From contig OZ024758.1 of assembly GCA_964016885.1 (NCBI GenBank), positions 30,876,001 through 30,940,000 of the forward strand: DNA of 64,000 nucleotides, in the 5' to 3' direction. Numbering within the stretch: the first letter of the stretch is position 1; every line of letters starts with the position of its first letter. Shown piece after piece: positions 35,941-61,043 of the stretch. The notes under the pieces are model-generated. The model worked only from the letters and a program-made list of their open reading frames with translations. It did no database searches and was not told the origin of the DNA. The stretch is from Eledone cirrhosa. Taxonomy: Eukaryota. The position numbers were made by a program, and so were the translations under genes.

Positions 35941-36870
35941 AAGTATGCATGTATACGTACATACATATATGTATACAGACGTACAGTAGCATGCACATAT
36001 ATATATATATATACATATATACATACATATGCATACAGGTACACATACATATATGCACGTATCAGTTTAGCGGCGCTTATTATAACGTCGCTTTGTTCGT
36101 TTGTAAACAAACTGAACAGCCTGAATTTATGCCATACGGTGTTATGGCATAAATTCAGGCTGTTCAGTTTGTTTACAAACAAACAAAGCGACGTTAGCGC
36201 CGCTAAACTGATACGTGCATATATGTATGTGTACCTGTATGCATATGTATGTATATATGTATATATATATATATATGTGCATGCTACTGTACGTCTGTAT
36301 ACATATATGTATGTACGTATACATGCATATTTACATTTAAGTAAGTGCCATACTAAGAGTGAGAAATGAAATTTCGTTTTCATTTTGTTTCAATTTATCG
36401 TTTTCGGTATGCCTGACCGATTTAACTCACTCAATATGCAAATTAGGCTGCTCAGCCGTTAATTTTCATAAGGAAAGTATATACTTTCGAACGTTCAACT
36501 ATCTGGCAGATGGGTAAACGGTGCTGATGATAGCTAACAAGCTTGAAACTAGTACATCGTTCCTGTGTCAGTGTTGAACAAAAAGGTGACGTGGTTGCCT
36601 TAACACCGTATGGCATAAATTCAGGCTGTTCAGTTTGTTTACAAACGAACAAAGCGACGTTATAATAAGCGCCGCTAAACTGATACGTGCATATATGTAT
36701 GTGTACCTGTATGCATATGTATGTATATATGTATATATATATATATATATGTGCATGCTACTGTACGTCTGTATACATATATGTATGTACGTATACATGC
36801 ATACTTACATTTAAGTAAGTGCCATACTAAGAGTGAGAAATGAAATTTCGTTTTCATTTTGTTTCAATTT
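35941..36870 (+). mobile_element. Retrozyme-like HHR element, family A: 1.5 tandem units of about 473 nt plus inverted 5' segment
   Basis: 36143-36396 repeated at 36609-36870; 35941-36136 inverted around 36137-36142; no ORF; (TA)n flanks. Confidence 0.8.
36518..36560 (+). ncRNA. Type I hammerhead ribozyme, family A (predicted cut after GUA, 36554)
   Basis: ACGGTG-CTGATGA-TAGCT AACA AGCTT-GAAA-CTAG-TA-CATCGT; stem I extends via CTGGCA/TGTCAG and GTTCAAC/GTTGAAC. Confidence 0.87.
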
Positions 36871-37370
36871 ATATATATATATATATATATATATATATTT
36901 ATATGTATATGTGTATATATTATATGTATATGTATATGTATTTGTATATATTATATGTATGTGTATGTATATGTGTATATATATATGTATATGTGTGTAT
37001 ATGTATATATGTGTATATATATATGTATGTGTGTATATATATGTGTGTATATATATATATAAATATATGTGTATATGTATATGTGTATATATTTGTATAT
37101 GTATGTGTATATATATATATATATGTAATATATGTATATATATATATGTAATATATATATATGTATATATGTATGTATGTATATATATATATATGTGTGT
37201 CCCCCCCCTCACCACCTCAAGAGCGTGAAAGTAATAAACCTTTGTTTGTACTGCCTCTCTGTTTTGTTCCCGTTCCATTTTCACTATATATATATATATA
37301 TATATATATATATATATATATATATATATATATATATATATATATATATATATATATATATATATATATT
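36871..37370. repeat. Degenerate (TA)/(TG) microsatellite
   Basis: Direct reading. Confidence 0.9.
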
Positions 37371-38036
37371 ACGGTGCGTTTAATGAATTATGAATTTCGA
37401 ATGTATGTTAGCTTAAAGCTAACTGCTTCAAAGCAGTATCATTTACTATGAAATAATTGTTTCTACTTTTTTGGCACAAGGCCAGCAATATATTAATAGT
37501 CGAATATGTTGGATTATAAATCCCCTTGACCCGAAATTATACCTCTCGTTGCTGGACGGGTGTGCTACCGTTTACACCAAGGTATGCTGACGTATTTCTC
37601 GTTATCTTAATCCGTTTCTATCAGTCAGTGGATGTAAATTTATGTTTCTCGTGCCTCGTTTTAAACCATCGAGCTCAATATCACGAGGCGGGGGGGTCAA
37701 TATTATGCAATCTTACTATTGCGAATGAAATTACATTGACAGGGGTAACAGAAGAGAAAGTTAGATGCTCTCGTTCATTCCACCAGCGTATTTGTGTGTG
37801 TCTTTTTTCTTTTCGTATTCAAGTAGCTACACACACATACATACCACATCCACACACACAGTCATACATACACACACACATATATATGGCTGAGTGTGTG
37901 TGTGAATTTAGCTATATATATATATATATATATATATATATATATATATATATATATATATATATATATATATATATATATATATATAAAATTAATGAAA
38001 TAAAAACAAAGAACAAGTTCCTTATATTAAAAAAAT

Positions 38037-38172
38037 TCATCATTTTACGATCATTTCTGGGATGTATATTTGTGTTGGTATGTATATCATATAGATCTAT
38101 GTAAAAATATTACAAATTATCAGAGGAAATATACATACCTTCACATATACATGCCGTCCTCAGAAATGATGA
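38037..38172 (-). ncRNA. Hammerhead ribozyme in the inverted pLTR
   Basis: Inverted copy of 40974-41105; stem III reads A-TGATCG-T. Confidence 0.7.
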
Positions 38173-40973
38173 GATGTGTTTATTGAAAAAAACCAACAAA
38201 GATTTAATATAAAAGGTCTGTTTGGGATCAGGTTTTGAATTGACCAATCAAAACATAAGACTTATCTTTTTGATTGAAAAAAAATACTTTGGGGATGAAA
38301 AGAAGTCAAGCCAAAAAGATAGTGAAGGGTATACGAAATTTGATGTTATTAAAGACTAACTTTAACTCTAATCCTTCTATAAGGCTTATATGCCCTTCCA
38401 AGTCAGACATTAACATCATTAGTAAAACATTTTTTACATAGAATTATCCCACAATTAAGAAAACCCGTTAACTTACCACTCTGGGAAAACACATCACAAG
38501 TAATTAACTGGTTTACTAATATTAGAAATAAATCATCTGTTTCATTTCTACAATTCAATATAGATGCTTATTATCCCTCTATATCACCCATACTCCTGAA
38601 CAAAGCCTTGATATTTGCCAAAAATAGATCAGACTTAACTATGGATGACATTAATATTATCACGCACGCTAGACAAACACTACTGGAGTTTCAGAAGGAA
38701 TACTGGACCAGAAATACATATAGTAATATCTCTTCGACATAACTATGGGCTTTAGTGATTCCGCCCAAATTACCGATCTTGTTGCCTCTTTCTTCTATTT
38801 AACATTAATTCATCTTTTCCCCACCTTAAAGGTGGTTTATATCGTGATTACTGTGTTCTTCTTTCCACTAATTGAAATTAAAAGAAATTGAAAGAAATAA
38901 AAAACTTGTTAGAACTTTCCTCAAAGACTATTATAATCTCACTATTACATTTGAAAACACCAGTAAAATAGTTAATTTCCTAGATATAACTTTAGACTTA
39001 TCTACGGGTATCTACCAACCTTACCATAAACCTAACCAAAACTTACATTACATACACTCACAATCCAATCACCCTATATCTATCCTTAAAAACGTAGCAT
39101 ATAATATCTCACTCAGAATTTCTAACCTTTCATCTAACCAGGATGCATTCGATAAAAACGCACCCTTTTATAACGAAGCTTTAGCTAGAAGCGGCCACAA
39201 AAACAAATTAATCTACATACCTTGCACCAATAATACTTCAAACATTCAACCCAATATTACCAACAAAAACCAAATGAAAAACCCAGACATGAATGCCACT
39301 CATACTACACATAAAAATACCAACATAAAACTTAATTTCTCTACCTCTTCTCACATAAAATATAATAACTTTCAAAAAACCATTCATCCTAATACTCCAA
39401 TATACGTTAATAACATTATTAACAAAATTCCTAGTAATCAGACTAAAACACCTAAATCAGTTAATCTAACTAAACCTATATATAATAAAGTCACTAATAG
39501 TAACTCTCTTAGTAAACATCCTGATACATCGTATAAATATAAAAAACAGTAATAGACGGGTTACTTGGTATAATGCTCCATTTAATCTACAAATTAAAGA
39601 CAATATCCCTAAAAAATTCTTTGCTATCCTAGAGAAAAACTTCCCACCAAACCATAAATACCATCAAATTTTAAATAGATCAACTATCAAATTTTCCTAT
39701 TCCACTACCAAAAATATACAACAGAATATAAGTACGTATAACGCATATAAGTGTAAAAAACCCCACAAATATACCACCAACACATCAAACCAACCATAAT
39801 ACTAAAATAAACCGCAACAAACCACCATCTCCTTCATCTATAACAAGTCGAGTAAACTCCACACAAAATTTGACTAACTCCCCTGATATAATATTCACGA
39901 ATGGTTGTAACTTTAAAGGGAATTTGTCTTATTAATAACATAGTCTATACATGTAAAATTAGAACTAAGGACTCCACTTTAAAGTAAGATTTAACCCACA
40001 AACACAGTTTTAAAAATGCCGCATTAGCTAATAAAACATCCTTGGCTGAAACAATTAATAATTATAGAAAGAAGAATATCGATTACAACCTGACCTGGAG
40101 CGTGCTCAAAAGGGCCATCCCTTATCAAAATAGCAGATACGAGTGTAGGTTATGCTCCCAGGAACTTTTTGAAATCATGAAATCCAAGGATATCCTATTA
40201 AATAAGCGACAGGAATTAATTATATCTTGAAATCATAGAATTAGAAGAACCTTCAAATATTATAAACCTAATTAATATACACCTTACTCTTATATTGTAC
40301 AATTTATTATAATTGTTTTTTTTTAAATTTAGTTAACCTATAATTAGTATTTTACTACAGAGAACTTCATAATTTTATTTCCTCCTTACAGCTCTCTTTT
40401 CCTAAAATTAATACCTGTAAGCATACCTATACATTAATTTAATTTTCTGATATGTATCTAGATTCCTTGTAGTTTAAATAAGATTGATATTTCTCACTAC
40501 TACCCTTATCCCAAAATGTTACTTTCCTTCGTTTTTAAAAACACTCTTTAATAACATCTAATTCTTATTTATCACATTCATATGAATTAATATAACTTTA
40601 TCCCTATAAGTATACCTATCAATTAATTTAATTTCTTGTTATAGATCTAGATTCCTTGTGGTTTAAATAAGATTGGTATTTCTCACTAATACCCTTACCC
40701 TAAAATTTTATTTTCCTTCGTTTTTAATATTATTCTTTAATAACATCAAATTTTCGTGTACCCTTCACTATCTTCTTGGCTTGACTTCTTTTCATCCCCA
40801 AAGTATTCTTTTCCTTCAAAACATAAGTCTGCACTCCTCTACCCTTAAATTAAATGTCTACTACTGCTATTCTATCAACTTGACCTCTAACTTCTCTATT
40901 GGTCAATTCAAAACATGTTCCCAAACAGACCTTTTATATTAAATCTTTGTTGGTTTTTTTCAATAAACACATC

Positions 40974-59994: not shown

Positions 59995-60039
59995 AATATT
60001 GAACTAGTTTCGTTGCTGTTACAACTCATCAGCAATATT
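59995..60039 (-). ncRNA. Type I hammerhead ribozyme, family B
   Basis: AATATTG-CTGATGA-GTTG TAACAG CAAC-GAAA-CTAG-TT-CAATATT. Confidence 0.9.
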
Positions 60040-60643
60040 TACCTATCTACCGGCCTTTCTGGAGAATCGTAAAAGCACATATCGTTATATGCTTTTTCTA
60101 TGAAAATTAGTAGTGGGCAGACTAATTTGCATAGAATGTGAGTACGTACCGGTTCAACGGAGACGATAAAAACAAATAACGAAACGAAATTAAATTTCGT
60201 TTCGTTTGTAACTCACTTTTGTATGACTGACGCTTAAACAATTAAGTTAAAAATGTACATCCATATATGTATACTGAAATACTAGTATGCATATGAATAC
60301 ACACACGTATACATATGTAGATGTACCAAGTCTTTCACTGGTTACTTTACTGTGAGTATCCAGCTATTCTGTATGTAAACACACAGACAAACCGGTTTTT
60401 AGAGTCATACTGGTTTTTGAGGAAACACCTTTTTAACTTAATTGTTTAAGCGTCAGTCATACAAAAGTGAGTTACAAACGAAACGAAATTTAATTTCGTT
60501 TCGTTATTTGTTTTTATCGTCTCCGTTGAACCGGTACGTACTCACACTCTATGCAAATTAGTCTGCCCACTACTAATTTTCATAGAAAAAGCATATAACG
60601 ATATGTGCTTTTACGATTCTCCAGAAAGGCCGGTAGATAGGTA

Positions 60644-60688
60644 AATATTGCTGATGAGTTGTAACAACAACGAAACTAGTTCAATATT
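60644..60688 (+). ncRNA. Type I hammerhead ribozyme, family B (predicted cut after GUU, 60681)
   Basis: AATATTG-CTGATGA-GTTG TAACAA CAAC-GAAA-CTAG-TT-CAATATT; outer stem ATTCTCCAGAAA/TTTCTGGAGAAT. Confidence 0.9.
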
Positions 60689-61043
60689 CCTTGTCTGGCT
60701 TTCTGGAGAATAGAGGAAAGGTGTTTCCTCAAAAACCAGTATGACTCTAAAAACCGGTTTGTCTGTGTGTTTACATACAGAATAGCTGGATACTCACAGT
60801 AAAGTAACCAGTGAAAGACTTGGTACATCTACATATGTATACGTGTGTGTATTCATATGCATACTAGTATTTCAGTATACATATATGGATGTACATTTTT
60901 AACTTAATTGTTTAAGCATCAGTCATACAAAAGTGAGTTACAAGCGAAACGAAATTTAATTTCGTTTCGTTATTTGTTTTTATATATATATATATATATC
61001 GATAATATTAATAAATGGAAAATAACTTTATAAAACCATATTT

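Follow-up and report, generated by a model that had tools for sequence, protein, structure and literature searches.

A candidate internal small nuclear RNA-type promoter ahead of the hammerhead ribozyme in retrozymes of Eledone cirrhosa

What is the function of the conserved sequence block that precedes the hammerhead ribozyme in repeats of the Eledone cirrhosa genome? The window, a stretch of 64,000 nt (G000:C19:30876001-30940000) from a (TA)n-rich genome of 3.0 Gb, contains the insertions A (A1), A2 and B, which are repeated in tandem, are non-coding and carry a type I hammerhead fold, that is, retrozymes lacking long terminal repeats (non-LTR retrozymes). The initial annotation described a hairpin that begins with the octamer ATGCAAAT upstream of each ribozyme and suggested that it serves as an RNA signal or an internal promoter. 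The block contains promoter words of the host small nuclear RNA (snRNA) genes and is thus likely to be a built-in promoter rather than an RNA signal. We propose that ATGCAAAT is probably the upstream word of an internal snRNA-type promoter with a predicted start at the 5' strand of the ribozyme. RNA polymerase II (Pol II) is somewhat favored over RNA polymerase III (Pol III) as the enzyme that would use it.

The motifs named in the initial annotation are all present where it placed them. The hairpin pattern ATGCAAAT...TAAT..CAT occupies positions 36436-36469, 48005-48038 and 60551-60583 and recurs in inverted partners at 29991-30024, 47615-47648 and 60100-60132; each of the six window cores with GAAACTAGT, three per strand, is preceded by it. 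Throughout the genome, an octamer separated by 60-100 nt from the ribozyme core is matched 29,729 times (15,364+14,365), and the reversed-pattern control is matched 0 times. Wider lineages were collected by pattern searches that did not demand the octamer for lineage E and demanded the 12-mer described below for lineages F and G (1,688 matches, control 0). The lineage counts given here refer to exact-octamer copies (60 A, 18 B, 11 E, 21 F and 12 G), with 12 unassigned rows excluded. The comparison of three repeats in the initial annotation involves fewer than three independent witnesses: A, A2 and B are all present, but A and A2 are 79% alike over 436 nt and represent sister subfamilies, so the window contains two independent lineages.

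Which host promoters does the block resemble? Host genes were found with Rfam models, and their upstream flanks, comprising 16 distinct snRNA-class promoters, were compared with the repeats. Upstream of host U6-type genes, the 12-mer TATGCAAAT(G/T)AG or a one-letter variant is located at -76 to -78, with a TATA box at -30. It is borne by two single U6 genes, 10 of 18 other U6 loci, the best of eight U6atac loci, which differs from it by one letter, and one MRP gene; three distinct U6 promoters carry it. At -76 to -78 the 12-mer is absent from all 50 U1/U2 loci, U12 and RNase P, and it is also absent from 12 of 12 further dispersed U6 copies. The repeats contain the same word, TATG(C/G)(A/T)AAT(G/T)AG. 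In A, the 12-mer TATGCAAATTAG (36435..36446, + strand), common to host U6, U6atac and MRP promoters, scores 18.6 bits, a value reached by 0 of 2000 shuffles. The block of B (60550..60598, +; 12-mer at 60550-60561) scores 16.1 bits (2 of 2000 shuffles), and that of A2 (48004..48053, +; octamer at 48005-48012) scores 11.5 bits (80 of 2000). A matrix of five distinct host promoters ranks the octamer first in each of the five lineage majorities, with 16-19 bits, a score as high as that of the host genes themselves.

The block also follows the spacing of the host Pol II snRNA genes. A YCAR core at -56 to -58, accompanied by a TATA-like box near -30, is present in 10 of 10 distinct U1/U2/U12 promoters and in none of five U6-type promoters. 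In flies, too, the promoter classes differ by 4 bp of spacing. The majorities of A, B, E and F and 6 of 12 G copies carry a core, YCA(G/C), that resembles the proximal sequence element (PSE) and lies at octamer+16, 26-27 nt ahead of a TATA-like box. In A, the core TCAGC (36452..36456, +) is followed by the lineage-specific 3' arm of the hairpin (36460..36469, +) and the TATA-like box GTATATAC (36477..36484, +), whose first T stands at octamer+42. B has CCACT at 60567-60571 and the TATA-like box GCATATAA at 60591-60598, and the A2 window copy has a decayed core, TTAGC, at 48021-48025 and a TATA-like box at 48046-48053. The U12 core reads CCAGC, as in lineage G, and the U12 box matches the E box over twelve letters. 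Of the 60 A copies, 52 have the TATA-like box at octamer+42, and all 18 B copies share a single position for it. At octamer+43 it occurs in 10 of 11 E copies and 14 of 21 F copies, and it is scattered over 40-48 in the old G copies. A CAG follows at octamer+72/73, approximately 30 nt past the box. The patterns used to collect the copies included neither the TATA-like box nor the CAG. Nine letters of the block and the spacing to TATA and CAG are fixed between lineages whose flanks are unalignable in places. In family K, a tandem hammerhead repeat of ~314 bp (loci L036, L043, L078, L082, L089 and L097), the octamer is missing and ATCAG lies 26 nt ahead of TATA in three of six copies. By these distances, transcription is predicted to start at 36508 in A, 48077 in A2 and 60623 in B. 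The comparison with host snRNA genes therefore backs the internal promoter that the initial annotation had offered as one of two options; the PSE-like core and the TATA-like box are features beyond that annotation, and so are two described below, a stem III that is palindromic (dimer-type) and an insertion layout of Penelope type.

How would such a promoter operate? A hybrid organization is conceivable, although we put it forward only tentatively: the octamer word of host Pol III genes may be combined with the proximal core and the 4-5 nt shorter spacing of Pol II snRNA genes. This arrangement is seen in none of the 16 distinct host promoters, and it might, with the same reserve, replace the distal enhancer, for which a unit of 470 bp has no room. 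In the main proposal, the block would be bound by SNAPc and a POU-type factor, and the polymerase would start ~72 nt after the octamer, meet no 3' box and read into the next unit. The predicted start falls within the extended stem I, on its 5' strand, so each promoter would give a transcript of the ribozyme in its own unit and of the unit after it. Two ribozymes would pair through the palindromic stem III, and once two successive ribozymes had cut, an RNA of unit length with the next promoter inside would be released and then circularized. A Penelope-type reverse transcriptase would copy the RNA into (TA)n, starting at two fixed sites that precede the octamer by 35-110 nt. Given that insertions stop shortly ahead of the octamer, a copy would need to be longer than about one unit to regain the promoter. 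The local hairpin would be a by-product, with fixed promoter letters and a lineage-specific partner strand: a promoter carried in a nearly fully self-paired RNA would lead each lineage to evolve a partner strand of its own.

Several observations weigh against the proposed promoter. The distance from the octamer to TATA is 42-43 nt in A, B, E and F versus 46-48 nt in five host U6-type promoters, and the repeats are thus not a faithful U6 promoter. The PSE-like core of the repeats comprises just three or four letters, scores 1.8-4.6 bits versus 10-16 bits for host genes (U1/U2/RNase P matrix without U12) and falls outside the top three sites in B, F and G. The distal TTACCTCCC element, located near -265 in the host, was not found in the scanned stretches of A1, A2, B, F and K, and T-runs of 5-6 are present in B, F and K. 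The constancy of the 12-mer in F and G is built in because their search pattern demanded it, and lineage E, found without it, had the 12-mer intact in two of the first five copies. Within A, conservation of the block does not exceed that of its flanks (0.92 versus 0.85-0.96), and a successful A subfamily has changed the A of AG (64 of 142). The 5' truncation points do not peak at the predicted start (3 of 79 versus 2.2 expected), and none of the 79 falls at the predicted cut site; reverse transcription without a pile-up at either position fits a circular or uncut multimeric template. The block forms a fold in every lineage majority (z -2.1 to -4.5), as well as in the copies of the window (z -1.9 to -4.8), whereas host promoters do not fold (z +0.3 to +1.2), which indicates that selection on RNA shape also acts. 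Moreover, the one abundant protein-coding Penelope-type family that was compared shares just microsatellite matches with the retrozyme units.

If the block is a promoter, could it belong to Pol III? The repeats may contain a compact type 3 Pol III (U6-like) promoter, with a start at the ribozyme and multimers made by leakage through short T-runs. This reading, the part of the promoter proposal that would fall to Pol III, is in our estimation rather unlikely, yet it draws on several observations. Among the host genes compared, the 12-mer is restricted to Pol III-type genes, the A box GTATATAC equals the U6 style and one B terminus coincides exactly with a T5 run. Schistosoma hammerhead repeats are also described as Pol III transcripts in the account given in PMC6765202. 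However, the octamer-TATA spacing is 4-5 nt below that of five of five host U6-type promoters, the YCAR core is typical of Pol II genes, and the box begins with C in B and in part of F. In addition, copies that hold the promoter and whole arrays would need read-through of T4-T6 runs. No T-run over 4-5 was found in the scanned stretches of A1, A2 and B, and host U6/U6atac ends have 6-10 T. The host 3' box, which is AAAA(T/A)CAGA-like in all eight host flanks displayed, was likewise not found in the scanned stretches of A1, A2 and B.

A role at the RNA level was also weighed against the internal promoter. As a hairpin recognized by the Penelope reverse transcriptase, the block would position internal initiation, possibly alongside a promoter role. 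In A, B and F, 28-38 nt separate the distal 3' terminus from the start of the block, which folds in each lineage, and the template of the anole element PAc, as far as described in PMC11167929, must reach ~55-60 nt beyond the initiation site. We nevertheless regard this role as improbable, given that the fold is not shared: no consensus pair emerged from 11 sequences of five lineages, in which nine letters are invariant; the pairing partners differ between lineages; and 5 of 13 single divergent copies have z >= 0. The upstream hairpin that the initial annotation expected to be kept in the wider family is accordingly not retained as one shared structure, and the RNA signal, its other option, is disfavored by the lack of a common fold. 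No octamer was found beside the tails of six near-full-length protein-coding Penelope-type loci, family K does without it, and the hairpin would leave the host-promoter match and the fixed TATA-like box unexplained. Still less probable is that the block is functionless, an ancestral sequence kept because the whole RNA is selected to self-pair. The B unit folds as a circle into a chain of hairpins (67% paired, z -9.8, 40 shuffles), so a local hairpin at the block is not special; the block in A decays like its flanks, and F and G were selected on the block. Against such neutrality, the nine letters and the TATA and CAG spacing are fixed while flanks are partly unalignable, pairing alone would let both arms covary, and the host-promoter match is reached by only 0-2 of 2000 shuffles.

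Other interpretations of the octamer and the hairpin were set aside. The ATG in the octamer is followed by just short frames and is not taken as a start codon. The octamer is unlike a vertebrate-style distal element at -220 in that host U1/U2 genes use another distal word. It has letters similar to a 3' box, but its distance to the termini is 35 nt instead of ~15, and it does not fit the pattern of the host 3' box. The window ATGCAAAT sites at 4974, 5540 and 56630 are antisense to unrelated minimal hammerheads. Three truncation ends near 60624 were at first considered as a hint of the start site, and their number did not increase later. A-to-G editing scars, which would have indicated an RNA hairpin, were not found in 63 B arms, a small sample (A>G at 20 sites, T>C at 23).

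The ribozyme itself has an ordinary architecture. The A hammerhead (36505..36570, +) has its GG-UA bulge at 36513-36516 and its core at 36524-36554, with a predicted cut after 36554 (GUA). The B hammerhead (60632..60697, +) has its core at 60651-60681 and a predicted cut after 60681 (GUU). The A2 window copy (48074..48139, +; predicted cut after 48123) is decayed, with the loop UAACAC and a weak stem I. The octamer precedes CUGA by 88 nt in A and A2 and by 100 nt in B, a small correction to the ~80-95 nt of the initial annotation. All elements of a type I hammerhead, namely the CUGANGA...GAAA core, the NUH cut site and stems I and II, are found. The three ribozymes align without gaps over 66 nt, with GG paired to CC and a UA bulge at 7 bp from the core, which supports the assignment of A and B to full-size type I hammerheads with a predicted layout of loop II facing the stem I bulge. 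The tertiary-stabilized ribozyme of the initial annotation stands in this sense, as a known design: the Rfam HH9 consensus likewise has this bulge in stem I and a loop II of six bases, and the contact is the Schistosoma design according to the parts of PMC12192606 that treat it. B scores 38.6 bits with HH9, below the cut-off of 52, and HH9 models an amniote subtype with a longer stem III.

Sequence variation further defines the ribozyme. The view that stems I differ completely between A and B was overstated, in that four of seven letters of the 5' strand are common and the other three are compensated. Two-sided (compensatory) changes affect 6 of 21 predicted pairs of stems I and II between A and B. 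The conservation claimed for loop II UAACA, GG-UA and stem III ACUAGU holds in window A and B and breaks down across the five lineages. Loop II reads UAACAA in 24 and UAAUAA in another 24 of 60 A copies; UAACAA recurs in 17 of the 18 B copies, and the prevailing loops are UAAUGA in E (8 of 11) and CAGUUAA in F (12 of 21). GG/UA/CC is present in most copies of A (46 of 60) and B (17 of 18) and in a minority of E (3 of 11); AG/UA/CU is seen in 3 of 12 G copies, and F has a different internal loop instead of the UA bulge. Stem III varies in sequence (ACUAGU, ACAUGU or AUGCAU) and is palindromic in 36 of 60 A copies, a count lowered because the lineage-E pattern search selected changed stems, and in 17 of 18 B, 6 of 11 E, 17 of 21 F and 2 of 12 G. 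A palindromic stem III is described in PMC4209133, in the part relevant here, as a known mark of dimer cleavage.

The insertions display the layout of Penelope mobilization. Each of A, A2 and B sits in (TA)n and consists of an inverted truncated arm, tandem units and two fixed 3' termini; the units are 420-470 bp long, contain no open reading frame (ORF) and each carry a type I hammerhead, in arrays with a 466-nt period. The A insertion (35942..36869), delimited by self-BLAST and by sequence, joins an inverted truncated arm at 35942-36149 (-) to ~1.5 direct units at 36143-36869 (+), with a period of ~466-474 and (TA)n at both outer ends. A further A1 copy lies at 29642..30046 (-), with its octamer at 30017-30024 and ribozyme core at 29906-29936. 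The A2 insertion (47262..48340) has an inverted arm at 47262-47696 (-) that bears an octamer (47641-47648) and a ribozyme (47530-47560) of its own, together with direct units at 47692-48340 with a period of ~422. The B insertion (59769..60983) combines an inverted arm at 59769-60432 (-; octamer 60125-60132, ribozyme 60002-60032) with a direct arm at 60427-60983, including the unit 60449-60914 (466 nt), and its two outer ends are the two 3' termini of the whole family. B copies in general are formed by an inverted 5'-truncated arm joined to direct 466-nt tandem units with (TA)n at the end. Their 3' ends, with locus-edge cuts excluded, fall at 60517 (33), 60914 (21) and 60909 (9) in 63 of 74 cases. 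Loose (TA)n ends at the same three positions are seen in public-run contigs, and a comparison of contigs of four public runs with B confirmed the variants and termini and added nothing further. The ends of A copies fall at two homologous positions, of which the distal one precedes the octamer by 37-38 nt. A Penelope layout with a tail from two initiation sites is known from the portions of PMC8557442 and PMC11167929 that describe it.

How do these repeats relate to known systems? Like the animal non-LTR retrozymes of Cervera and de la Pena 2020 and of Li, Clavereau and Pollet 2026, as far as the accounts in PMC7229834 and bioRxiv 10.64898/2026.07.22.740005 extend, they have AT-rich units of a few hundred bases with one type I hammerhead each, a short palindromic stem III and a proposed Penelope mobilization; the U-U at the stem II base is shared with axolotl HHR_Amex2. 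In those accounts, retrozymes are reported to be strongly and widely expressed, the mode of transcription is left unstated, and neither an internal promoter nor mapped insertion ends appear, whereas a promoter-like block and a Penelope-type two-site tail are visible in the DNA here. Our literature search, which did not extend to subscription journals and supplements, found no paper on an snRNA-type promoter in a mollusc or cephalopod retrozyme. The closest promoter parallel is newt satellite 2, whose promoter reportedly includes an octamer. Satellite 2 is a hammerhead repeat with an internal snRNA-type promoter and reported Pol II transcription in the sections of PMC2220036 and PMC6765202 that concern it, which cite the primary studies of Coats, Zhang and Epstein 1994 and Cremisi 1992. 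It differs in belonging to another animal lineage; judged by the same sections, what sets the present repeats apart is that the octamer adjoins a proximal core, as in host U6-type genes, at U1/U2/U12 spacing. Sm-alpha of Schistosoma mansoni (Rfam HH9) has a stem I bulge facing a 6-nt loop II and a promoter inside the unit that drives the next unit, as outlined in PMC12192606 and PMC6765202. In contrast to the present repeats, Sm-alpha is reported there to be transcribed by Pol III; B is under the HH9 cut-off, and stem III here is a dimer-type palindrome. The Neptune/Poseidon Penelope-like elements share an inverted 5'-truncated arm, a partial tandem, an optional two-site tail, (TA)n targets and a hammerhead in the repeat, according to the relevant parts of PMC11167929, PMC8557442 and PMC4209133; the present units differ in having no ORF, in a full-size rather than minimal hammerhead and in sequence from one local autonomous family.

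What this analysis adds is the direct 12-mer match to U6, U6atac and MRP, the spacing comparison with U1/U2/U12 and the octamer-less family K, so that a promoter candidate, its start and its polymerase are predicted to the base from host snRNA genes. The octamer lineages A, B, E, F and G versus K, together with spacings of 42 versus 47 nt, provide a natural series on SNAPc-type Pol II/III choice in an invertebrate. In flies, two snRNA promoter classes differ in the proximal element, as stated in the part of PMC1761439 considered here. If the hybrid organization is true, a pool of circular RNA would be fed by mobile Pol II promoters of snRNA type, present in tens of thousands of copies. In that case, an internal snRNA-type promoter would also be a general reason, in newt and invertebrate, for retrozyme expression in all tissues.

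The host snRNA genes present further features. They have a TTACCTCCC-like word at approximately -257 to -290 in place of a distal octamer (L141-L170, L198-L237 and L310). The single RNase P RNA gene (L247, G000:C24:12936134-12936474) has ATCAGT, two TTACCTCCC and no U6-type 12-mer, which suggests that it may be transcribed by Pol II, unlike MRP. A tandem cluster of more than 30 variant U6 genes (G000:C19:31780605-31840331) is located ~0.84 Mb from the window, and some of its copies have lost the upstream element, one via a repeat insertion.

Protein-coding Penelope-type elements are abundant in this genome. One family yields 18,444 first-look candidates with frames up to 1,273 aa, belongs to the RT/GIY-YIG clusters of the atlas and reads as Neptune type by its putative linker motif. 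Its two termini lie 58 nt apart (9 and 8 of 23). Pfam gave no match for a Penelope-type ORF of 1,217 aa, and solved structures gave weak reverse-transcriptase matches. In the window, a young and very abundant Neptune-like element (61950-64000, -; L121-L126) carries a terminal repeat of 470 bp, a minimal hammerhead and this ORF of 1,217 aa. Several other insertions in (TA)n, at 4935-5586, 30180-30520, 46930-47240, 56590-57330 and 61000-61898, have inverted repeats and cores of minimal hammerheads and are likely to be terminal repeats of other Penelope families. Another repeat (L139:2500-2760 and L212) has TATGCAAATGAGG antisense to a minimal hammerhead, with no TATA box at a matching distance. 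Metagenome matches to the octamer and core numbered 27, none with both hammerhead stems, and were taken as chance. Of sampled B words (60449-60914), 52-64% are present in runs filed under three other coded organisms. Broken reverse-transcriptase frames at 6371-6895, 17000-20078, 20861-25925, 32777-33495 and 38872-39552 of the window represent non-LTR elements, two with zf-RVT matches, and apparently Penelope-type elements.

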